DNA from: a virus
Taxonomy: Duplodnaviria > Heunggongvirae > Uroviricota > Caudoviricetes
IMG/VR virus record: IMGVR_UViG_2939172355_000006
Span: 1 to 16,754 of that record
DNA: 16,754 nucleotides
Strand: one strand, 5' to 3'
The notes beneath the pieces are model-generated. The model did no database searches. It had not been told where the DNA came from and was given only the letters and a program-made list of their open reading frames with translations. Below are positions 1,471-14,315 of the stretch, piece by piece. A program made the translations under genes and the position numbers. How positions within the stretch are numbered: the first letter of the stretch is position 1; each line of letters opens with the position of its first letter.

Positions 1471-2286
1471 TCAGAAACCGTCGCGGCGAATCAGCGTAGT
1501 GACGCCTGACTCGTTAAGCAGGTCAGCATCGGTGCCGGACTCCTGCAAATCCCAGAATACAGATGCGCTGATGCCGGTAACACCGTTCACCCCGACATTG
1601 GACAGCGTTTTATGCCAGCCCTGCTCCTGGTCGATTTTAGCGCGCAGCCCCAGCGCACGGGCGGTGGCATACGCGGTGGCGGTGGTACTGGTGACCGTAT
1701 CCCATGCGAGGAAATCCGGCCAGATGACCATCAGCTCACGCTGGCTGAAATTCTGGCGGTAGGCTTTCACCTCGGAAATGGTTTTACAGCCCCATGCGCT
1801 GATATACCCGAAAGCGCGCAGCTTCTGACAGACTGATGCCAGTGCAACAGCCACCTCTTTGGTATCCAGCCCCGGCACGCCGAGAATACGCGGTTTAACA
1901 CCGGTTACCGACTCCGCCGCCAGCAGGGCTTTCAGTCCGGTGTACTGACCGTTTTCGTCGGTGGTGCCGATGATATTGGAAACGGTCTGCGCAAGTTTCG
2001 CTTCCTCGTCGTCGCCGGTGCCGTCTTCCACACGCACGACAACGGTGACCGGTTTTGACTGGTCGGCGATGGCCTGCAACGATGCCGCCAGCGTGCCTTT
2101 TTTACCGGCCTTTGCAATTGCGCTCTGCACATTGGTAATCAGCACTGGTTTATTGAGGGGGAAGATTTCCGCATCCGCATCGCTGGCCGTGCAGACCATG
2201 CCAACAATGGCGGTGGATACGGTGGAAATGACGCGGGTGCCGTCGTTAATCTCCAGCACCTGCACGCCGTGATGATAGTCACTCAT
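1471..2286 (-). pseudogene. Tail sheath protein (P2 gpFI-like), N-terminal 271 codons only; 3'-truncated
   Basis: Product begins MSDYHHGVQVLEINDGTRVISTVSTAIVGMVCTASDADAE..., which I recognise as the N-terminus of P2-family contractile tail sheath proteins (about 390 aa when intact). The frame stops after ...TTLIRRDGF and ogr follows 110 bp downstream with no tail tube, E, T, U or D genes in between. GGAG lies 8 nt upstream of the ATG at 2286. Confidence 0.7.
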
Positions 2287-2605: not shown

Positions 2606-3505
2606 TCAAAGAATTAGCACTTGCTCTTCACTAGAAACTATGGTTCTGACTTCACGCTCAAATATTGGATCCATTATCATTTTTCTATTTGTTGGAATAG
2701 TAAATTTACCGAGTACCATGACAATGCTACTCAACGGAAATAATTTTGGAGTAACATTTCCTAATTGAATCGTAGGATATATATTAAAGCCCCCTTTTAT
2801 CCTCATTGGCGAACCTTCAATGAAGTGTCGATAATTAAATTTCGCCATAGGGATTCTCGCCACATGCACTTTCATAATTACAGCAACCTGAGCTATTTTT
2901 ACTTTCTGGAGGTAAGTTGACAATCGTTCTAACTGCGTTGTTTCATAGAAAAAATCAGACCACGTTACAGTACTTGTTCCAGTAACAATTTTTATGCTGT
3001 TTCTCTTGTTGGGGTGAGCTTTTCCATATTCATAGATCTCCCGTAAGCTATCCATGTTCTTCACATAAGGGGCTTTCCGACCTCTCTTGACATAAACGCG
3101 GTCTGTAGTATCAGAAGGTGGATTTGCCTGCATAGCTGCAGCTTTTCTGCTTAATTTAGAGATATCATCTTCATCGAGTATATGTATACGGAATATATTA
3201 TTACCTGTGGCAAGCGCACGGCTGATATCATGACTGGAATCACTTGCATAAATTGTATTCAATCCTGAAGTTCCATACTGGCATAATTTGTCATGCGTGA
3301 AATTTTTTTCCAGTCTAAAGAAGGCGGGGATATGCAAGGTTTTATTAAAACTCCGACGAATATGGCTTTTGACATACACCAAATGAGCAGAGCAATTTGG
3401 GTCAGGACATTTGAGTGGATAGGGATTAACACTATAATTAAAAGTATTTACATTTACTAAAATCTGATTGTTATCAATAGCCTGAGTTATACGAATACCA
3501 CTCAT
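2606..3505 (-). CDS. Hypothetical 299 aa protein (AT-rich cargo gene in the Z/fun position between tail fiber assembly gene G and sheath gene FI)
   Basis: Clean ORF with ATG at 3505 preceded by GGAGGAG (4 nt spacing). Codon usage is visibly AT-rich compared with flanking phage genes. N-terminal Cys/His cluster (KCPDPNCSAHLVYVKSH...H...H...C). No family recognised by eye. Confidence 0.75.
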   Translation of the reverse strand: MSGIRITQAIDNNQILVNVNTFNYSVNPYPLKCPDPNCSAHLVYVKSHIRRSFNKTLHIPAFFRLEKNFTHDKLCQYGTSGLNTIYASDSSHDISRALATGNNIFRIHILDEDDISKLSRKAAAMQANPPSDTTDRVYVKRGRKAPYVKNMDSLREIYEYGKAHPNKRNSIKIVTGTSTVTWSDFFYETTQLERLSTYLQKVKIAQVAVIMKVHVARIPMAKFNYRHFIEGSPMRIKGGFNIYPTIQLGNVTPKLFPLSSIVMVLGKFTIPTNRKMIMDPIFEREVRTIVSSEEQVLIL

Positions 3506-4249: not shown

Positions 4250-5347
4250 TTAAACGCTCGCTACATTATACCAGGTGCCATTTATATACTTTTGAACGGG
4301 TCTGTAATAAACGCCCGCTATATTATCGGCAGAGTTGGACCCTGTATCCTGAACATTAATACCAGACAATACATGACCTGACGGGCACTGGAAATTCCAT
4401 GTTTGCCAGTTGTTCACTCCATAATATTGCTGTGACCCAAGTCGAACATCTTTCACATATCTGGAATCAAAATTGCCATAGTTGCCAGGAATAACTTGCG
4501 AGCCACAAAGCCAGTTACCGTTATTATCCATGTACGCCTGACCATCGGTGCCATTGGCTGTCCTTGAGTTATTAATCATGTAGATGCCAAATTGCTTATT
4601 TCCCAGACCGCCAATCATAAATTTGCGGTCGGCATGGTCCTGACGGAGCAAAGCCTGAGCACCATCAGTGGATACCGCATTACGTCCAAAAATAACATTC
4701 TGGTCACGCATATGAATCCACATGCCTGTGCTGCTGTTAATTGCAAGGCGGTTTGCGTACACCCATGCGTTAGTTGTTATATCTCCTGTAACATCCAGAG
4801 CGTGCCCCATAGTTATGCGACCAGTTCTGAGATTCAACGAAAAGGGGCGTAGTGGCCCGATATCACCATTTTCCCCCTCATTCTCTCGTGTGGGGATAAT
4901 ATGCAGGCATTCTTCAGAACGGCGAAAAATAGCACCAAAGGATGAATTAAAGATTCTCAGTGCATTGACTGTCGATATTTTTACTTCACTGCTGAAAAGG
5001 GCTTTAACAAGGACAGACAAAGCATCCCATTTAAGATTCATCAGGTCTTTTGTTGTGGTGCCCTGACGGCTTCTCCATTTGAAATATTCATTGCCGTTGT
5101 CGCCTGTTTCAAACCACATGTATGAATCAGTGTCACCATCGGCATCATTTTTAAATCCAATCTTCGCCCAGTCAGTATTTCGAATCCAGGCAAGGATTGA
5201 GTCGTTTTCAAAAGTAAGTCCACCGGACAAGGTATCGCCATTTTTTTGCACGGCGTTCCCGGCTCGGTTTACCGTTTCCTGTAAACCGAGATATTCGATA
5301 ACGGCGGCAACGGTCGATTTAGCCAGAATACCGTGAGCGCGCTGGTT
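4250..5347 (-). pseudogene. Tail fiber protein (P2 gpH-like), C-terminal ~365 codons; 5'-truncated, no start codon
   Basis: The frame opens directly after an in-frame stop at 5348-5350 and reads ...GILAKSTVAAVIEYLGLQETVNRAGNAVQKNGDTLSGGLTFENDSILAWIRNTDWAKIGF...[17 protein letters not shown], matching the conserved middle and C-terminal receptor-binding part of P2-type tail fibers. The N-terminal baseplate-attachment domain is missing. The track start at 5251 is a GTG inside the fragment. Confidence 0.72.
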
Positions 5348-5691
5348 TCAGGTTCATACTCAATCACCGCCCCGTCAGGGAAACGGATATGCAGGGCATC
5401 CGCCGACGCAGACGGCGCGGGGTTATCGCCGGAATAAATCCCCGGCAGAACGAACGCCGTGTCGAGTTCACCACCCACGGCCAGAATCAGCACCTGTTCC
5501 CCCACGGAAGGTGCCCACCATGTGCGCGAACGCCCGGCGCGATGGGTCAGCCACTGAAGCCAGTCGGTGCACATGCCGCCGGTCTGCACACGGCAGCGAC
5601 CGGCATTAAGGTCGGTTTCGACGATAATGCCGGTGCGGATCATGTTGCGCAGTGCGCGCGCGAGTTCCTGAATATTTGCGAGAGTGTTCAT
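5269..5691 (-). pseudogene. Baseplate spike protein (P2 gpV-like), N-terminal fragment fused out of frame into the tail fiber remnant
   Basis: From the ATG at 5691: MNTLANIQELARALRNMIRTGIIVETDLNAGRCRVQTGG...IRFPDGAVIEYEPETSALTV matches the gpV N-terminus, then reads FWLNRPLPPLSNISVYRKR*, which is the tail fiber DNA in a different frame. Baseplate genes W, J and I are absent. Confidence 0.7.
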
Positions 5692-5774
5692 GCGTGTGAG
5701 ATTGCACAATATATAAAAGTTATGCTATCTGGATTCATTTGTAGAACGACCATACAACATTCGAGGAGAGCGTA

Positions 5775-6560
5775 ATGTTCAGTGATAATGTGACTAATGC
5801 GTGGTGGTTTATCTCTTTGTATCTATTTTTATTAATAGCATTAACATTTGTTACCTTTGGTAAAAGTAATCTTATGAGGTTTATTGCACATCATTTCAAT
5901 CTTGAGTATTCAGACAGAAAGTTAAAAATGCTCGACAAAAAATGGCGCGACATTCAACTATTTAAAATAATTAACGGAATCAATGTATCAGGCATCGAAG
6001 ATGTGAGAATGATACAGCAGGGGCTGATTGATGGAAAACTAAAAACATCGTATTTTTTCCTTACTCGCTTCTGGGGTGACATAACAAAACCACCACACAT
6101 AATTAAAACAACAATTGTAATTCTGGCCAGTATTATTTATATTCTCTTCGCATGTTATATACACAATGAACAATCCGCTATAGTAAGGGATGCCATAGGT
6201 ATACCATATAAAAATATGATGTACTATGTTTATAGTGACAAAGTTCTTTTATCCTTCAAAAATAAAACGGTTGAATTTAATAAAACTTATAGCCTTGCCG
6301 ATTGCAAGAGTCTGCAAAACGTATTTATAAAAGACACACTTCCCGAGATCGCCTGCAATAAGCTCTTACAGCTAAACAAGGAGGACTCCGAATGGTTAAG
6401 TCAGGAGATTAAAGATAATAACAGCTACAGAAAAACATTATTAATAATGTCCCTAACCTATTTCATTTCAGGTCTGCTTATATTCCTGTCATATACAAAA
6501 TTCCTTTACGCCAATAAGAAGGTTTTAGAATACAAAGCATCAAATAAAAACCACTCATAA
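5775..6560 (+). CDS. Hypothetical integral membrane protein, 261 aa (AT-rich insertion between S and V, opposite strand to the late genes)
   Basis: ATG at 5775 preceded by GAGGAG (4 nt spacing). Three strongly hydrophobic segments (AWWFISLYLFLLIALTFVTF; IIKTTIVILASIIYILFACYI; LLIMSLTYFISGLLIFLSYT). Very AT-rich; no family recognised. Confidence 0.6.
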   Translation: MFSDNVTNAWWFISLYLFLLIALTFVTFGKSNLMRFIAHHFNLEYSDRKLKMLDKKWRDIQLFKIINGINVSGIEDVRMIQQGLIDGKLKTSYFFLTRFWGDITKPPHIIKTTIVILASIIYILFACYIHNEQSAIVRDAIGIPYKNMMYYVYSDKVLLSFKNKTVEFNKTYSLADCKSLQNVFIKDTLPEIACNKLLQLNKEDSEWLSQEIKDNNSYRKTLLIMSLTYFISGLLIFLSYTKFLYANKKVLEYKASNKNHS

Positions 6561-6570
6561 ACCTCTAAAT

Positions 6571-6597
6571 ATTGAGCGACCAGCACGGCCGCTCAAT
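6571..6597. terminator. Hairpin ATTGAGCG ... CGCTCAAT between convergent genes (membrane protein gene and S)
   Basis: 8 bp inverted repeat with an 11 nt loop, located between the two convergent stop codons (6560 and 6632). U-rich flank is modest on both sides. Confidence 0.45.
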
Positions 6598-6631
6598 GCT
6601 TAATTGCGCATCAGCCTCTGCCTGGATAAAA

Positions 6632-7084
6632 CTAACGCTCAAGGTGAGCCAGGATAATCTCTTCAATCATCTGCACATCCTCACCGGTAAAGCCGAGCAG
6701 AGGACGCGCCGGATAATCAATTTTCTTACCGTCTTTCCGGTTTTCTTCCGACAGACCGAACTGATGCACACTGGCGATTTTCGGTGACTTCCCGCCGTAA
6801 AACTCCATTGATGCCTGTTCCGGGCTGGCGCGGATATGCAAAAAACGACTGGTGATAAGTTTCGCAAACATTTTTCGCTTAACACGACCGGTCTTTTTTC
6901 TGGCGCTCTGCTGCTGGCGTGGCGCGTAGGGTGTGCCGTCCGGAGTTTTCTGTGCCATCACCCGACGCTGCTGACTCTGCCGCAGGCGTTTCGCCAGTTC
7001 GGCACTCAGTCGCCGACGCCCTGACGGTGACAGCGATTCAATCAGTCCGGTCAGCCGGTCTTCAAAACGCTTAAACTCATTCAT
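6632..7084 (-). CDS. Tail completion protein S (P2 gpS-like)
   Basis: 150 aa MNEFKRFEDRLTGLIESLSPSGRRRLSAELAKRLRQSQQRRVMAQKTPDGTPYAPRQQQ...IILAHLER; matches P2 gpS in length and sequence as recalled. Start overlaps the end of R by 8 nt. Confidence 0.85.
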   Translation of the reverse strand: MNEFKRFEDRLTGLIESLSPSGRRRLSAELAKRLRQSQQRRVMAQKTPDGTPYAPRQQQSARKKTGRVKRKMFAKLITSRFLHIRASPEQASMEFYGGKSPKIASVHQFGLSEENRKDGKKIDYPARPLLGFTGEDVQMIEEIILAHLER

Positions 7085-7797: not shown

Positions 7798-8077
7798 TAA
7801 GTAACCTCGTGATGGTTTTCTCGCGCTGTGCTTCACGCTTCGCGGCGTTCTCCAGCTCCTGACGCAGTGCCACCTGCGCCAGCTCGTTTTTGTCTGCCCT
7901 GGTAAGGGCAACATGAAGCTGATTTTTCAGCATGGTGATGGTCGTCTGCTGTTCACTGGCGACGTTGTTCGCCCTGTCCAGCGAGGCGCGCAGGCTGGCA
8001 TTTTTGTGTTTCACCAGAAACAGACCGGCCACCGCCAGTGATAACAACACGACCAGCACAATCATCAGCTTTGACAT
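7652..8077 (-). CDS. lysB: LysB, inner-membrane spanin (Rz-like)
   Basis: 141 aa with an N-terminal TM segment (MSKLMIVLVVLLSLAVAGLFLV) followed by a charged coiled-coil-like region; matches P2 LysB. Confidence 0.8.
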   Translation of the reverse strand: MSKLMIVLVVLLSLAVAGLFLVKHKNASLRASLDRANNVASEQQTTITMLKNQLHVALTRADKNELAQVALRQELENAAKREAQREKTITRLLNENEDFRRWYGADLPDAVRRLHQRPACADASDCPQRLPESEPLPDAGQ

Positions 8078-8490
8078 GGTTCCCGCCCCTCAAAACGCTG
8101 ACAGCAGGCCGTACGTATCAGCCGGAAGAACACCGATGCCACGAGATAAATCAGCGCGGTAAAAATCCCCCCGGCAGCGACCAGCGAGATAAACGTCGCC
8201 ACCATCACTACCAGAGCCACTGACCGCCTGCGCCACGGCACCGGCTGCAAAAACAGCGCCGTGACAATCTTCACGGCCAGCGATTCCGGCGGCAGCTCCC
8301 GCCCGTAACGTTCCAGTACATACTCAGTGGCATACACGCCGACACCACCGGCAACCACACAGATAACCGTCGCCAGAATCGCCCAGGCGGCGACAAAACT
8401 GACGGCCACGCTCTGCGGGTAAATCAGGGACAGTGCCAGCATCAGCGCCAGCGACACGTTCAGCATCAGTGAAAGGGATAATTTCTTCAT
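8065..8490 (-). CDS. lysA: LysA, membrane protein of the P2 lysis cassette (lysis timing)
   Basis: 141 aa MKKLSLSLMLNVSLALMLALSLIYPQSVAV... with four hydrophobic segments; matches P2 LysA. No holin (Y) or endolysin (K) gene lies upstream of it; a portal fragment on the other strand abuts its start codon. Confidence 0.8.
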   Translation of the reverse strand: MKKLSLSLMLNVSLALMLALSLIYPQSVAVSFVAAWAILATVICVVAGGVGVYATEYVLERYGRELPPESLAVKIVTALFLQPVPWRRRSVALVVMVATFISLVAAGGIFTALIYLVASVFFRLIRTACCQRFEGREPCQS

Positions 8491-9364
8491 GGTGTTTACT
8501 CCGTTTACCGGTCTGGCAAAAAGCCTGCGTGCTGCCGTGCATCACAGCTCACCGATTTACGTCAAACGTAACATTCTGGCCTCAACGTTTATCCCACACC
8601 CGTGGCTTTCTCAGCAGGATTTCAGCCGCTTTGTGCTGGATTTTCTGGTATTCGGTAATGCGTTTCTGGAAAAGCGTTACAGCACCACCGGTAAGGTCAT
8701 CAGACTGGAAACCTCACCGGCAAAATATACCCGCCGTGGCGTGGAGGAGGATGTTTACTGGTGGGTGCCGTCCTTCAACGAGCCGACACCTTTCGCGCCC
8801 GGCTCCGTGTTTCACCTGCTGGAGCCGGATATTAATCAGGAGCTGTACGGTCTGCCGGAATATCTCAGCGCCCTTAACTCTGCCTGGCTGAATGAGTCGG
8901 CCACGCTGTTCCGCCGCAAGTATTACGAAAACGGCGCTCATGCCGGATATATCATGTACGTCACTGATGCCGTGCAGGATCGCAACGATATCGAAATGCT
9001 TCGCGAAAACATGGTGAAGTCGAAAGGCCGCAACAACTTTAAAAACCTGTTTCTCTATGCCCCGCAGGGGAAAGCTGACGGCATTAAAATTATCCCGCTC
9101 AGTGAAGTGGCAACGAAGGACGATTTTTTTAATATCAAAAAAGCCAGCGCCGCTGACCTGCTGGACGCGCACCGCATCCCCTTTCAGTTGATGGGCGGCA
9201 AGCCGGAGAACGTCGGGTCGCTGGGTGATATTGAGAAAGTAGCAAAGGTCTTTGTCCGCAATGAGCTTATCCCGTTACAGGACAGGATCCGCGAGATAAA
9301 CGGCTGGCTCGGTCAGGAGGTCATCCGATTTAAAAACTACTCACTGGACACTGACAACGGCTGA
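8489..9364 (+). pseudogene. Portal protein (P2 gpQ-like), C-terminal ~270 codons; 5'-truncated
   Basis: ...SPIYVKRNILASTFIPHPWLSQQDFSRFVLDFLVFGNAFLEKRY...YIMYVTDAVQDRNDIEMLRENMVKSKGRNNFKNLFLYAPQGKADGIKIIPL...GQEVIRFKNYSLDTDNG reads as the C-terminal part of a P2-family portal. Strand and position next to cos fit the P2 map. The N-terminal part and the terminase gene P are missing; the exact 5' boundary is uncertain. Confidence 0.6.
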
Positions 9365-9552: not shown

Positions 9553-9779
9553 CGCCCGCTTCATGGGTCGGTTTTGATGCAATTCCAAAAGCCGTCCAAA
9601 CTCTCTTAGGCTAAATGTCCAACGAGAAAATAGTTCTTTGAATGTGAATGCATTTTAATGCAGAGTTATGCCCAGCATTTTTGTACACTTCGATGTATCA
9701 AATGCGCTGCAAACGATCAAATATGGATGTTTTATCAAGCATCCCCCAAAAGATATTTACATCATCCCATGAGGTTAAG

Positions 9780-10853
9780 ATGGATAACAAAATCGTAGAA
9801 ATTGAGACAAATAAGCTTGATTTTGACCCTAAAAACCCACGTTTCTTTCGTCTCAATGATGCCAGTAACGCTGCAACAGTCATTGAGGAAATGTTAGATG
9901 ACGAAAGTGTCCACGATCTAATGCTATCAATCGGTCAGCAAGGTTACTTTCCTGGAGAACCTTTATTGGCAGTAAAAAGCAATGGAAACTACATCGTGGT
10001 TGAGGGAAACAGACGCTTAGCTGCTGTAAAGTTGCTCAATGGAGATCTGCTTCCTCCAAAAAGAAAACTTAAAGGTGTGCAAGAAATCATTGATGATACT
10101 ACCAATAAACCTAAGAAGCTTCCCTGCATCATTTATGAAAACCGAGAGGATGTACTGAGATATATCGGTTATCGTCATATAACTGGGGTCAAAGAATGGG
10201 ACTCATTATCTAAAGCCAAATACCTTAAAGAGTTATGTGATACTTTTTATTCACATGAGCCTAAAGAGATAGTATTAAAAAATCTGGCTCGTGAGATTGG
10301 GAGTAAACCACATTATGTTGCAACACTTCTCACTGCACTGAACTTATATGAAGTCGCGCATGACCATGAGTTTTTTAATTTACCCATGAAGGCTTCTGAC
10401 GTGGAATTTTCATATATAACCACAGCTTTGGGATATTCAAAAATCACAAACTGGTTAGGTCTACAGGATAAAAAGGATTTTTTAGACCCAAATTTAAATG
10501 AAGAAAACCTTAAGCGTTTATTCTCTTGGTTTTTTGTGCCTGACCAACAAGGTAGAACCATCATCGGTGAGTCTCGAAGAATAAAAGATATTGCAGCAGT
10601 GGTTGAGAAACCCGAAGCAATTGAAATTCTCATGAAAAGTTCAAACTTGGATGAAGCATATCTATATACCAGCGGAGAAAGAGAAGCATTAGATAAAGCA
10701 CTAAACGCAGCTAGTGTTAAATTAAGAGTAGTTTGGGATATGCTACTTAAAGCTAAAGAATTAACATTAGAGCATGAAGAGGCTGCATCTGAAATTTTTG
10801 AGATGTCAAAAAATATTAGAAATCAGATCAGAAGCAAAAGGGAGGATGATTGA
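9780..10853 (+). CDS. ParB/Srx-like nuclease-domain protein, 357 aa (cargo gene 1 in the old/tin position)
   Basis: ATG at 9780 preceded by GAGG (7 nt spacing). The N-terminal ~90 aa carry ParB N-terminal domain signatures: IVEIETNKLDFDPKNPR ... VHDLMLSIGQQGYFPGEPLLAVKSNGNYIVVEGNRRLAAVKLL (GxRR box at about nt 10005-10016). C-terminal two thirds are helical and unrecognised. AT-rich. The track start at 9648 has no RBS and is rejected. Confidence 0.8.
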   Translation: MDNKIVEIETNKLDFDPKNPRFFRLNDASNAATVIEEMLDDESVHDLMLSIGQQGYFPGEPLLAVKSNGNYIVVEGNRRLAAVKLLNGDLLPPKRKLKGVQEIIDDTTNKPKKLPCIIYENREDVLRYIGYRHITGVKEWDSLSKAKYLKELCDTFYSHEPKEIVLKNLAREIGSKPHYVATLLTALNLYEVAHDHEFFNLPMKASDVEFSYITTALGYSKITNWLGLQDKKDFLDPNLNEENLKRLFSWFFVPDQQGRTIIGESRRIKDIAAVVEKPEAIEILMKSSNLDEAYLYTSGEREALDKALNAASVKLRVVWDMLLKAKELTLEHEEAASEIFEMSKNIRNQIRSKREDD

Positions 10854-11883
10854 GATTATGATTACAAATCTTGATTCAATGCCTTCTAATGAGCCTTATT
10901 TATGGGCTGATTATATTGAGATATTGGCCTTAACTAATATCGACAGGTCATTCAGTCGAGGAGACCTATATAGCACACTGCAAGCTCAACCCGAAGCAGT
11001 ACTAGCTGAAACAGATGAAGCAGAAGAAGAGGGCGTTTATGATGTTGATGATGAAAATGATACGCCTGTACGCAAGAGAACAAAACGAAGTGTTAGTCGA
11101 GCATATACTGACAGAAAGTGGAGCTATGCGATAGGCTTCATACGACAACGCATTGATTTATTTGGGGATAGTTACCCTTTTACTTTATCAGAAGACAACG
11201 ATACTGTAGAGTTACGTGATATATCAGAAAAGCCACTGGAACATTTAGAAAGACTATATTTAGCTTTACTAATCTGTGCTAACATAAAATATGTCAACAT
11301 AATGAGCAGAAGAGAGATAACGCGCAGTTTTGAACTAATTAGTTTACCTATTTTTGAAAGCCTAATGCCTAGCGGTAGCATAATAAAAGCATGCTGGGCT
11401 TCTGGTGGTCAAGCGGCCCCTTACACTGGAACTCTATATAATAAATTTAAGAGTATTGCTTCCGATATCCGTTGCACAGCGAACTTCAAAGAACGAGATT
11501 TCAGTCGAGGAAATAGTGGTGACGGAGGCCTTGACATAATTGCCTGGCATCCAATGGGAGATCAACGAGATGCCATCCCTATTTCTTTTGTTCAGTGTGG
11601 CTGTTCTCAAGAAGAGTGGGAAGCGAAGCAGCTTGAGGCCTCACCTGCGATGCTCTACAGTAAATTCCCCGTAGCTCACCGATGGGCAACTTATTATTTC
11701 TTACCTCAAGATCTACGATGGATAGATGGTGAGTGGGCGCATAAAAATAAGTTAGGCGATGCTATTTTTGTTGATCGCCTAAGATTAATCAATTTAACCA
11801 GAGCATCTGATAATATTGATCACAGTCAAAATATTAGCTATCTAGATATCATCCTTGATCCTTCCAGCGCGATCGCTGCTTAA
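10846..11883 (+). CDS. Hypothetical ~340 aa protein, candidate PD-(D/E)xK-type nuclease (cargo gene 2), translationally coupled to the ParB-like gene
   Basis: Start ATG at 10846 overlaps the upstream stop (ATGATTGA) with GGAGG immediately 5'; an alternative ATG is at 10858. C-terminal region has ...GNSGDGGLDIIAWHP-(x21)-ISFVQCGCSQEEWEAK..., compatible with a D ... E-x-K catalytic core (about nt 11520-11630). Stop TAA at 11881-11883 overlaps the convergent methyltransferase stop. Confidence 0.65.
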   Translation: MIEIMITNLDSMPSNEPYLWADYIEILALTNIDRSFSRGDLYSTLQAQPEAVLAETDEAEEEGVYDVDDENDTPVRKRTKRSVSRAYTDRKWSYAIGFIRQRIDLFGDSYPFTLSEDNDTVELRDISEKPLEHLERLYLALLICANIKYVNIMSRREITRSFELISLPIFESLMPSGSIIKACWASGGQAAPYTGTLYNKFKSIASDIRCTANFKERDFSRGNSGDGGLDIIAWHPMGDQRDAIPISFVQCGCSQEEWEAKQLEASPAMLYSKFPVAHRWATYYFLPQDLRWIDGEWAHKNKLGDAIFVDRLRLINLTRASDNIDHSQNISYLDIILDPSSAIAA

Positions 11884-12818
11884 TCCCATAAATCTGGAAG
11901 GTTTCTAGCAACCGCCTCAAACAATGGAGGCGGTACTGCATTACCTACCACAGTATATTTCATATTAATAGAAGCCCGTTCAGTTTCTGGGAAAATTAAA
12001 TCCCCAAAACCTTGTAAAATAGCAGCCTCTCGATAGCTAAACCTACGAGCTGGTGCATCCGAAGTAAATTGCCACTTATCAGGTCCCAATTTTTCTAATG
12101 TTGGACTTATTGGATGTAGAGGCATATGTCTAGGATTTGCAACAATTGTTTTAGATATCTGATCCCAATCTTGCCTACGGTTTCGCGATAGATAATACCA
12201 ATGAAAATCGGCGTCATAAAACTCGCCAACAGGCCAAACAGGCATATGCCCAATAGCATCACGAATTGTGGAATATGGTGTCAAACCATCACCATGTGTT
12301 GGTTTTGGAAATTTGTATGTAATACCGTAGTCCTTTCGTATTCCTACGATAAAGATTCGCTTCCTATCTTGGGATACCCCATAATGGGACGCATTCAGAA
12401 TTTGCGAGCTTACTGTATAACCTGCTTCTTCGAAAACTTTGAATTGATCCTTTAATAAATGCTCAAAGTTACGCCTTACCATACCAGAGACATTCTCTAC
12501 AATGAATGCTTTTGGCTTAATTTTACTCAAAGCACGGGCAAACTCTAAATATAGTGTATTAATCTTTCTATCTGCCTTCCTTGCCCCACCTTGACTAAAT
12601 CCTTGGCAAGGATAGCATCCGATGAGCAACTCAGCAGAAGGGAACGACTGGAGCCCTGAGATATCGCCCAAAATGTAGTCAGTTTCAGGATGGTTTTCTA
12701 AGTAAACGTCCCTTGCGTAAGGCAAAATATCATTTGCCATAAGCACATTGAAACCTGCGTTCAAAACTCCCGCATCAGAACCACCACATCCAGAAAAAAG
12801 TGAAACTACAGTTGGCAT
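11880..12818 (-). CDS. DNA (cytosine-5)-methyltransferase, 312 aa (cargo gene 3)
   Basis: Canonical m5C-MTase motifs in standard order: FSGCGG (motif I, aa 8-13), PCQGFS (motif IV, aa 70-75), ENV (motif VI, aa 108-110), QDRKRIFIVG (motif VIII), GNAVPPPL (motif X). ATG at 12818 preceded by GGAGG at 5 nt. Convergent with the upstream ORF, with a 4 nt overlap (TTAA). Confidence 0.9.
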   Translation of the reverse strand: MPTVVSLFSGCGGSDAGVLNAGFNVLMANDILPYARDVYLENHPETDYILGDISGLQSFPSAELLIGCYPCQGFSQGGARKADRKINTLYLEFARALSKIKPKAFIVENVSGMVRRNFEHLLKDQFKVFEEAGYTVSSQILNASHYGVSQDRKRIFIVGIRKDYGITYKFPKPTHGDGLTPYSTIRDAIGHMPVWPVGEFYDADFHWYYLSRNRRQDWDQISKTIVANPRHMPLHPISPTLEKLGPDKWQFTSDAPARRFSYREAAILQGFGDLIFPETERASINMKYTVVGNAVPPPLFEAVARNLPDLWD

Positions 12819-13267: not shown

Positions 13268-13719
13268 TATCCAAGCCACCCGTTTTGCTGTGCACGCTCC
13301 ATCTGTTCATCTGAATAGTTCCATGCTCCATCCGTGGCAACCATTGCCCCGCCAGACATCCCCGTCTCTGGTTCATACATAACAGCAAGGCCGAGCTGAT
13401 GCATAATTTCATGATTAATTCTGAATACCAGACCACGCTCACTAAGTTCTTTCCAGTTCACAATCTCACATGCGCCTGTATTAAGCCGCTCAATACTTAG
13501 CAAGACATAATCTTCCAGCCAGTCTGACAGGTCAGTAACATCTGTTATCCGGGCTTCAACCTTTCGCCCCGTATACACACCCTGCACCCATTCATGCAAA
13601 ATCAACGTGTCCCCGCGCTCATAATTACGGTCATTTTTCCGAAACTCTGCGCGTTTCTTTCCTTCCAGCACAAGGTCAAAATATTTTGCGTGCAGCTTTA
13701 CCTCGTGAATTTTTGCCAT
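13267..13719 (-). CDS. Hypothetical 150 aa protein with ASCH/DUF3850-like N-terminal region and a C-terminal HExxH motif
   Basis: ATG at 13719 overlaps the upstream stop (TAATG) with GGAG 9 nt upstream. [44 protein letters not shown]... resembles the small ASCH-like proteins found in P2-family early operons; the tail contains FRINHEIMHQLGL (HExxH). Confidence 0.55.
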   Translation of the reverse strand: MAKIHEVKLHAKYFDLVLEGKKRAEFRKNDRNYERGDTLILHEWVQGVYTGRKVEARITDVTDLSDWLEDYVLLSIERLNTGACEIVNWKELSERGLVFRINHEIMHQLGLAVMYEPETGMSGGAMVATDGAWNYSDEQMERAQQNGWLG

Positions 13720-14252
13720 TATGTCCACTCCATTACTGTTGAGAATCCCGGCCACTCATCAGCGACCGGATACGTGAATTTTTTCCCGTCATAATTTACG
13801 GTCGCTCCACGCGCCAGCGCCTCAAGCTCCCATCGCTGAGGCCTGATACCGTTCTGAGCAAGGTCAACGCGGATACGGGTGATTTGCATTCGTTCCGACC
13901 GGGTCAGTCTGGCCGACGGTGCAATTTCATGTGTTTTTAACGGGCTTCCGTTTCTTTGTTGACGATTTGGTGTTTTCAGGCCGTGTTTTAATGCTCCCCT
14001 GAGCGCCCTCACGACCTCCGGGTCATTCCATTCGATAACACCGTCATCAACCAGATTTAGCACTGCTGCGGCGTGCTCAGAAGGTGTGGGAGCCGGTAAC
14101 GAAGCATCACTACCGGTGAGCTTTGTGATGTGGCGAATCATGGCGTCAAGATGAGAAGAAAAGCGCGTTGCTGCGTCGGCCTGTGCTTCGGTTCTGACCT
14201 GTTGCAGCAGTAATGCGTATTTACCGCACTGATTTTCAGAAACTGTATGCAT
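13719..14252 (-). CDS. Early-operon ORF, 177 aa; probably a deletion fusion whose C-terminal ~140 aa derive from the 3' end of replication initiator gene A
   Basis: ATG at 14252 with GGAG at 6 nt. The C-terminal part (...[38 protein letters not shown]...[21 protein letters not shown]) matches what I recall as the C-terminus of P2 gpA, but no rolling-circle initiator domain and no ~2.3 kb A gene exist anywhere between B and cos. The fusion interpretation is an inference. Confidence 0.5.
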
Positions 14253-14315
14253 GACTTTCTCCAGGCAAAAAGAAGCCCCGCACAATTAAGTGCGTTAAAA
14301 ACTCTGGTTAATTAC

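Follow-up and report, generated by a model that had tools for sequence, protein, structure and literature searches.

Orf30 of phage P2, found intact in a decayed Escherichia coli prophage, belongs to a small family of predicted membrane proteins tied to the gap between tail genes S and V and may act in defence at the cell envelope

The gene considered here invites comparison with the superinfection-exclusion membrane proteins of temperate phages, such as P22 SieA, HK97 gp15 and T4 Imm and Sp, which are small inner-membrane proteins without an enzymatic domain, each encoded as a separate unit. In phage P2, the classical exclusion phenotypes map to old, tin and fun, and not to orf30. Although P2 serves as a model phage, a few of its genes, orf30 among them, still lack an assigned function; our literature search found neither a function assigned to orf30 nor an experimental phenotype. 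P2-like phages carry foreign genes at three sites, the TO region, the Z/fun region and the 'orf30 region' (PMC3091744), and in phage R18C the last of these contains an ORF of 741 bp (PMC6823313). Studies of defence hotspots detail the A-Q and Z/fun gaps (PMC9122126, PMC9519451, bioRxiv 10.1101/2024.10.15.618418), and P2 hotspots 'within the tail genes' and 'downstream of GpL' are mentioned in PMC13586616. The S-V gap was not found by name in the recent literature on P2 defence hotspots.

Here, we analysed a stretch of 16,754 nucleotides from a virus record of the Caudoviricetes (IMGVR_UViG_2939172355_000006), referred to below as the window (Table 1). A sequence-only reading of this DNA had described an AT-rich gene for a 261-aa protein with three hydrophobic helices, encoded between S and V on the opposite strand and bounded by a hairpin. 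The open reading frame, its GC content and the Pfam matches of the flanking genes agree with this description, the helices coincide with three Kyte-Doolittle hydropathy peaks (residues 9-28, 108-129 and 221-240), and the gene on the plus strand runs against the late operons, with V and S both on the minus strand. The hairpin folds on both strands, and its stem is invariant in seven alleles, even though these diverge by up to 14% in the coding sequence. In P2, it is annotated as 'putative rho-independent terminator for O operon' (AF063097), and it probably ends the orf30 transcript in addition to that of the O operon.

Table 1. Positions of features in the window and at the loci used for comparison.
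Feature	Sequence	Position	Strand	Details
Decay sites (truncated genes)	Window	1471-2286, 4250-5329, 8065-9364, ~13700-14285
AT-rich ORF, 299 aa, intact	Window	2606-3505	-	about 36-40% GC; PHROG 7195 end-to-end match
gpV, baseplate spike, 5' fragment of 121 codons	Window	5329..5691	-	Pfam Phage_base_V 1e-20; RefSeq pseudogene
Divergent V/orf30 control region, 83 bp	Window	5692..5774	.	P2 annotation carried over; comparison of seven alleles
Putative pV with Ogr site	Window	~5733-5760		by homology to the P2 annotation
Shine-Dalgarno sequence GAGGAG	Window	5763-5768		6 nt 5' of the orf30 ATG
orf30 CDS	Window	5775..6560	+	ATG start; 261 aa; three predicted TM helices; predicted inner-membrane protein
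Hairpin between convergent orf30 and S	Window	6566..6602 (stem 6571-6597)	.	P2 annotation, folding, allele comparison
gpS, tail completion protein, intact, last gene of the late O operon	Window	6632..7084	-	Pfam Phage_tail_S 1e-43; RefSeq name 'phage virion morphogenesis protein'
AT-rich three-gene block in the old/tin (A-Q) slot	Window	9648-12818
Empty-type spacer next to V, 66 bp	L003	1864-1929
Intact orf30 in the defective P2-like prophage of E. coli B	L011 (B-LamR)	2102523-2103308
S-V gap filling	L091	2498-4400
S-V gap filling	L084	3150-4394
S-V gap filling	L041	2892-4418
S-V gap filling	L080	3276-4376
S-V gap filling	L097	3335-4504
S-V gap filling	L055	3674-4417
S-V gap filling	L029	3668-4423
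Lone family gene, E. cloacae	L101	5001-5765
Lone family gene, E. soli	L019	2554-3318
trhP-yegS slot of E. coli K-12	L100	2167183-2168306		cryptic P2 remnant PR-X (ogrK, yegZ) and yegR

The AT-rich gene between S and V is orf30 of phage P2, carried by a decayed P2-type prophage. The orf30 region is 99.9% identical at the nucleotide level to Peduovirus P2 isolate OU784549 and 91.6% to the reference P2 genome (AF063097); the ORF alone shares 90.6% of its nucleotides and 84% of its amino acids with the reference, where it is annotated as 'orf30 / Orf30, nonessential' (protein AAD03281.1). The phrog_2407 profile matches residues 1-261 of 261 (E 9e-141), and by this full-length match, the S-V position and the strand opposite to the late operons Orf30 is a member of PHROG 2407. 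The P2 and window versions have the same length, the same neighbours V and S, the same orientation, terminator and pV activator site, but they are different alleles, and the window copy lies in a decayed prophage beside fieF whereas P2 is a viable phage. The gene is thus already known, being the long-annotated orf30 in a known variable region, an identity that the sequence-only reading had missed, and as a sequence finding it is ordinary. A structural role was rejected because the gene is absent from most P2-like prophages. P2 orf30 is annotated as non-essential for phage growth, for which 1024 genomes with an empty S-V junction provide indirect support.

In the window and in the GenBank entry of P2, an intact ORF of 786 bp codes for 261 aa. 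The description of P2 ORF30 as 'short, 261-bp-long' in the R18C paper (PMC6823313) conflicts with both. Within the 940-bp AT-rich stretch 5692-6631, the longest stop-free run comprises 271 codons, whereas 2000 shuffles gave 71 codons on average and never more than 183, and the ORF is therefore far beyond what is expected by chance. The GC content is 0.327 for orf30 versus 0.539 for S and 0.596-0.617 for the V fragment, so that its base composition is, as in a moron-type gene, unlike that of the flanking phage genes (0.33 versus 0.54-0.62).

The prophage itself lies beside fieF in E. coli, is 100% identical to strain WCHEC020031 and has undergone heavy decay. Truncation has affected FI, H and V as well as the portal gene Q and the replication gene A. 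The genes for the head, terminase, holin and endolysin have been lost by deletion, and lysA now abuts a portal fragment. One deletion removed the 3' end of V, genes W, J and I and the 5' part of H; the resulting H'-V' junction is exactly common to 68 complete E. coli genomes, which indicates that the cryptic prophage is clonally inherited. No known RNA family or tRNA was found in the window. All three P2 cargo slots are intact, and each of them holds AT-rich cargo. The Z/fun slot, between the tail-fibre assembly gene G and the truncated sheath gene FI, contains the 299-aa ORF, for which Pfam, NCBIfam and PADLOC gave no match; like orf30, it is an uncharacterised cargo gene that has stayed intact despite the decay of the prophage, the second of its kind here. 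In the A-Q slot, gene 1 codes for a ParB-N-domain protein (PADLOC PD-Lambda-5_A 3e-24, PDC-M38A 9e-25), gene 2 for an unassigned protein of about 345-369 aa and gene 3, which is convergent, for a C5 cytosine methyltransferase (Pfam DNA_methylase 1e-61, top PADLOC match DruM). As gene 2 was not matched by PD-Lambda-5_B, this block may be either a variant system or a module of the restriction-modification type.

Of the 5426 complete E. coli genomes that we surveyed for what lies between S and V, 1911 contain S/V-type sequence. The junction is empty in 1024 genomes, with 66 bp between S and V, and orf30 is present in 460-463 (86-100% nucleotide identity, always chromosomal), which corresponds to about 8% of complete E. 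coli genomes; a further 77 contain an R18C-type ORF of 246 aa on the late strand. About two thirds of the E. coli P2-like prophages lack orf30. The divergent E. coli allele of locus L005 was absent from this genome set. Among 78 P2-like loci with a close gpV in IMG/VR, 52 gaps are empty, 16 contain orf30 and 10 contain other AT-rich cargo. In both collections, orf30 varies between otherwise near-identical phages, and the gene is accordingly accessory, being present in some P2-like prophages and missing from many near-identical ones. The expectation that S and V are adjacent in P2-type genomes holds for most E. coli P2-like prophages, but not for P2 itself, in which orf30 lies between them.

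The cargo of the remaining IMG/VR gaps includes a complete Pycsar system (PycC 1e-128 and PycTM 8e-29), two AAA ATPases that match the PADLOC candidate PDC-S59, a protein matching PDC-S33 and three unassigned proteins, namely a membrane protein of 389 aa, a protein of 247 aa and a Cys-rich one of 251 aa; these fillings have a GC content of 34-38%. With Pycsar and PADLOC candidates among its contents, the gap between S and V serves as a slot for cargo in which recognised anti-phage systems are found too. A survey of S-V gaps had been named as a way to follow up the gene, and it revealed a variable slot, which is empty or occupied by orf30, the 246-aa ORF, Pycsar or PDC candidates and behaves as a third defence-type hotspot, located inside the tail genes.

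Homology and structure searches, another route that had been suggested, revealed no function. For Orf30, Pfam, NCBIfam and PADLOC gave no defence, exclusion or structural family, and PADLOC-DB 2.0 in particular matched no family to Orf30 itself and gave one marginal, irrelevant match among 28 relatives. A fold search of BFVD returned nothing at E<0.001, a profile search of the PDB found nothing relevant, and no homology to a characterised superinfection-exclusion protein was detected. A sub-threshold DUF6535 match was taken as hydrophobic noise. A holin or lysis role was rejected, as the protein is too large for it and the gene is on the opposite strand and non-essential.

Distant relatives were identified by an exhaustive HMMER search of 1.84 billion protein representatives; a word-indexed homologue search returned only close relatives, even with a profile. 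The HMMER search yielded 44 representative clusters, about 25 of them full-length (250-270 aa) with 17-24% identity to Orf30, from sources that include Yersinia, Pectobacterium, Enterobacter, Cronobacter, Sodalis and an Enterobacteriaceae strain. All 28 aligned family members match PHROG 2407, and five of them also show weak matches to DUF6216 (PF19723). The Sodalis member P0032, which sits in an S-V slot, reaches 28.9 bits over nearly the whole DUF6216 model (gathering threshold 27.3 bits), whereas the window Orf30 does not pass this threshold and gave no DUF6216 hit at E<0.01. We therefore call Orf30 a distant relative of DUF6216 and not a member, with a link that runs through intermediates only. 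DUF6216 comprises uncharacterised proteobacterial membrane proteins of about 230-270 aa, which resemble Orf30 in length and architecture. A 2026 preprint on the silencing of antiviral immunity by H-NS (10.64898/2026.09.05.749240) contains DUF6216 once, 'BL21' 29 times and 'P2-like' four times, and serves as a lead.

Nearly every relative lies between gpV and gpS of a P2-like prophage, is encoded on the strand opposite to theirs and is separated from the start of V by about 80-165 bp. This is the case for E. coli P0042, one Sodalis locus, four Yersinia loci, two Pectobacterium loci with extra cargo before S, Enterobacteriaceae ATCC 29904 and two decayed metagenomic remnants (L105 and L106). At the Cronobacter locus, two small genes separate the relative from V, which is about 1.2 kb off. 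Compared to P2, gpV is 64-82% and gpS 45-51% identical at these loci, and the membrane protein about 22-35% over the aligned parts. Every family member has a GC content of 30-36% between flanks of 48-63%, and a GC content below that of the flanks is typical of horizontally moving cargo that is often silenced by H-NS. The occurrence of relatives with about 20-25% identity at the same place and on the same strand in at least five other genera indicates that the family is an old resident of the slot which was often lost or replaced. The view of orf30 as an inserted gene is hence partly right, in that the gene is accessory, AT-rich and often missing, but it is too simple, as divergent relatives fill the same slot and strand elsewhere. 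The data show a small Enterobacterales family (phrog_2407) that is tied to one slot of P2-like phages.

The family also outlives the phage. In E. cloacae, the gene stands alone between trhP (yegQ) and yegS in all 24 contigs read, and a copy with 78% identity lies between the same genes in E. soli; the Enterobacter family member is absent from IMG/VR. In E. coli K-12, the same slot contains the P2 remnant PR-X, and judging from this position, the Enterobacter orphan looks like all that survives of a P2-like prophage, in domesticated form. E. coli B carries a defective P2-like prophage that decayed independently, with S truncated and fused to a portal fragment, and its orf30 is intact and 96% identical to the window allele at the nucleotide level. 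Together with the window and the remnants L105 and L106, this makes four independent decayed prophages in which the family is intact.

Sequence comparison of the alleles showed that orf30 is under purifying selection. All seven E. coli alleles compared are intact at 261 aa. Pairwise dN/dS values are 0.21-0.71, mostly 0.3-0.5, versus 0.03-0.3 for S and V, and dN is roughly ten times that of S and V; such fast divergence at a fixed slot fits what arms-race genes show. By region, dN/dS is 0.26-0.30 in the soluble loops and tail, 1.5 in TM1, 0.7 in TM2 and 0.8 in TM3. In the distant family, the best-conserved stretch (QLF[KR]xxNGIN) covers residues 61-70 in loop 1. The 28 aligned members have no K or R in the N-terminus, a net charge of +4.9 in loop 1, 0 in loop 2 and +2.1 in the C-terminal tail. 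This family-wide positive-inside pattern, combined with the three hydrophobic helices, predicts an inner-membrane protein with the N-terminus outside, loop 29-107 in the cytoplasm, loop 130-220 in the periplasm and the C-terminal tail in the cytoplasm. Loop 2 contains about two cysteine residues on average, C194 being found in 28 and C177 in 25 of the 28 members, and is predicted to have a disulfide; loop 1 is predicted to be helical. In the AF2 model (pLDDT 74.8), loop 2 forms a four-strand beta-meander plus helices.

The initial suggestion of a superinfection-exclusion or abortive-infection factor is plausible for orf30, with the location in the slot and the predicted topology speaking for it. 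Presence in some prophages and absence from others, defence cargo in the slot, fast evolution and retention during prophage decay favour a host-protective accessory role, and a single membrane protein without an enzymatic domain but with a presumed disulfide-bonded periplasmic domain fits best with exclusion at the level of the envelope. We consider an anti-phage role of some kind to have an even chance. It seems possible, though somewhat short of that, that orf30 is a lysogenic-conversion gene which protects the lysogen at the envelope against other phages. To this end, orf30 would be expressed from the prophage, and its product would shield the lysogen from infection at the envelope. The disulfide-bonded periplasmic domain might then meet the membrane-crossing machinery of an incoming phage and block the entry of its genome, while anchoring of Orf30, or its coupling to a host partner, could fall to the TM helices and to the conserved loop on the cytoplasmic side (residues about 55-105). 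Superinfection exclusion is the mechanism that we favour; taken by itself, a block of phage entry is, in our judgement, more unlikely than likely. Some observations do not sit easily with protection at the envelope. The most conserved part of Orf30 is predicted to be cytoplasmic and not periplasmic, and a protein that blocks entry would be no better a match for this than one that senses infection or acts as an effector. The long-term hold of one family on one slot is unlike the rapid cargo swapping of P2 defence hotspots (PMC13586616), and this locking to the slot could point to a role in the biology of the phage itself. In addition, Orf30 matched no PADLOC model and no Pfam exclusion or Abi family, and no consensus promoter was found ahead of the gene.

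The conservation of the cytoplasmic loop bears on an abortive-infection mechanism, in which Orf30 would rest inactive in the inner membrane until it senses an infection cue by way of this loop, and would then oligomerise and depolarise or permeabilise the membrane, so that the cell dies before phages are released. Conservation within the family is highest in loop 29-107 and the TM helices evolve freely, like pore or anchor segments; the same slot elsewhere contains Pycsar, which uses a small TM protein as its effector, and AT richness would fit tightly repressed, potentially toxic cargo. However, orf30 is a single gene without a partner sensor or an enzymatic domain, Orf30 has no likeness to RexB, PycTM, a 2TM effector or any other PADLOC model, and the conserved, putatively disulfide-bonded periplasmic domain would have no obvious role. 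We regard this mechanism as distinctly unlikely.

The control region between V and orf30 and the locking of the family to its slot raise the question of a function in the phage's own life cycle. orf30 is a separate unit that diverges from the V promoter and converges on S. On the V side, the P2 annotation places the start of the late promoter pV and a binding site for the activator Ogr, which by homology are expected 14-41 nt upstream of the orf30 ATG in the window. Promoter scans revealed no consensus sigma-70 promoter for orf30 on the plus strand of the 83-bp spacer, and because of the position of the pV/Ogr site any orf30 transcript would start at or beyond the pV core and cross the activator site. 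Late activation of pV could thus interfere with orf30 transcription. The spacer is nearly invariant in seven alleles, against a divergence of up to 14% between their coding regions. In empty-gap prophages, the spacer next to V has 66 bp and contains a GC-rich hairpin (GCCGCCGG...CCGGCGGC); the V-proximal spacer of orf30 carriers is AT-rich and completely different, which indicates that the orf30 cassette brings its own version of pV and the activator site. The 246-aa ORF of locus L004 retains the empty-type promoter.

A function of this kind could be the exclusion of related P2-like phages or of re-injection by progeny, or a tuning of lysis or the envelope. It would agree with a nearly invariant control region common to orf30 and pV, with lysis genes just upstream of R and S and with one family locked to a slot and strand beside the spike gene V in at least six genera, where it diverges with the phage. 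Against it, the gene is annotated as non-essential, and roughly two in three P2-like prophages of E. coli do without it. It is also kept by prophages that have lost the ability to form particles and stands alone on the chromosome in Enterobacter, settings in which selection would not maintain a role confined to the phage cycle. We therefore consider a role in the phage cycle improbable.

The Enterobacter orphan could, in turn, point to lysogenic conversion unrelated to phages, such as stress tolerance, transport or resistance to colicins or tailocins. A stand-alone gene maintained in two species at 78% identity and a predicted membrane-spanning protein with domains on both sides would be compatible with a task in host physiology, but Orf30 has no transporter, enzyme or signalling domain and the other cargo of the slot is of the defence type, so that we judge such a task to be very improbable. 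That orf30 is a functionless passenger, an ORF persisting in young DNA, is next to negligible and strongly disfavoured by the constraint analysis, for although the 68 carriers are clonal and retention among them proves little, dN/dS in the soluble loops is well below 1, all sampled alleles are intact at up to 14% nucleotide divergence and full-length homologues exist across genera at about 20% identity.

Envelope protection thus remains our preferred reading of orf30. We further speculate, with more doubt than conviction, that the Orf30/DUF6216-like family might represent an ancestral, fast-evolving, single-gene membrane immunity factor of P2-like phages, which was tied to the S-V slot before these phages spread through the Enterobacterales, was repeatedly lost or exchanged for other defence cargo and became domesticated as a lone gene in Enterobacter. 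New here are the recognised defence systems in the S-V gap, the recurrence of the family across genera and its survival beyond the prophage. The slot cargo, the position-locked family, the link to DUF6216 and the Enterobacter orphan make a defence role testable by simple experiments. A positive result would establish a new single-gene membrane defence and explain the occurrence of orf30 in complete E. coli genomes; if true, the reference genome of a model phage would have concealed a new kind of envelope-level anti-phage protein for 30 years.

Compared to known systems, orf30 resembles the cargo of old, tin, Z/fun and the hotspots of P2-like phages in being AT-rich, non-essential, variable among related prophages and located in a fixed gap between core genes (PMC3091744, PMC9122126, PMC9519451). 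The A-Q and Z/fun hotspots rapidly swap unrelated cargo, whereas the S-V slot is usually empty and one family recurs in it across genera. With SieA, gp15 and Imm/Sp, Orf30 has in common that it is a small predicted membrane protein without an enzymatic domain, encoded as its own unit; it differs from them in being larger, with sizeable predicted domains on both sides of the membrane, and neither Pfam nor fold searches revealed a likeness to them.
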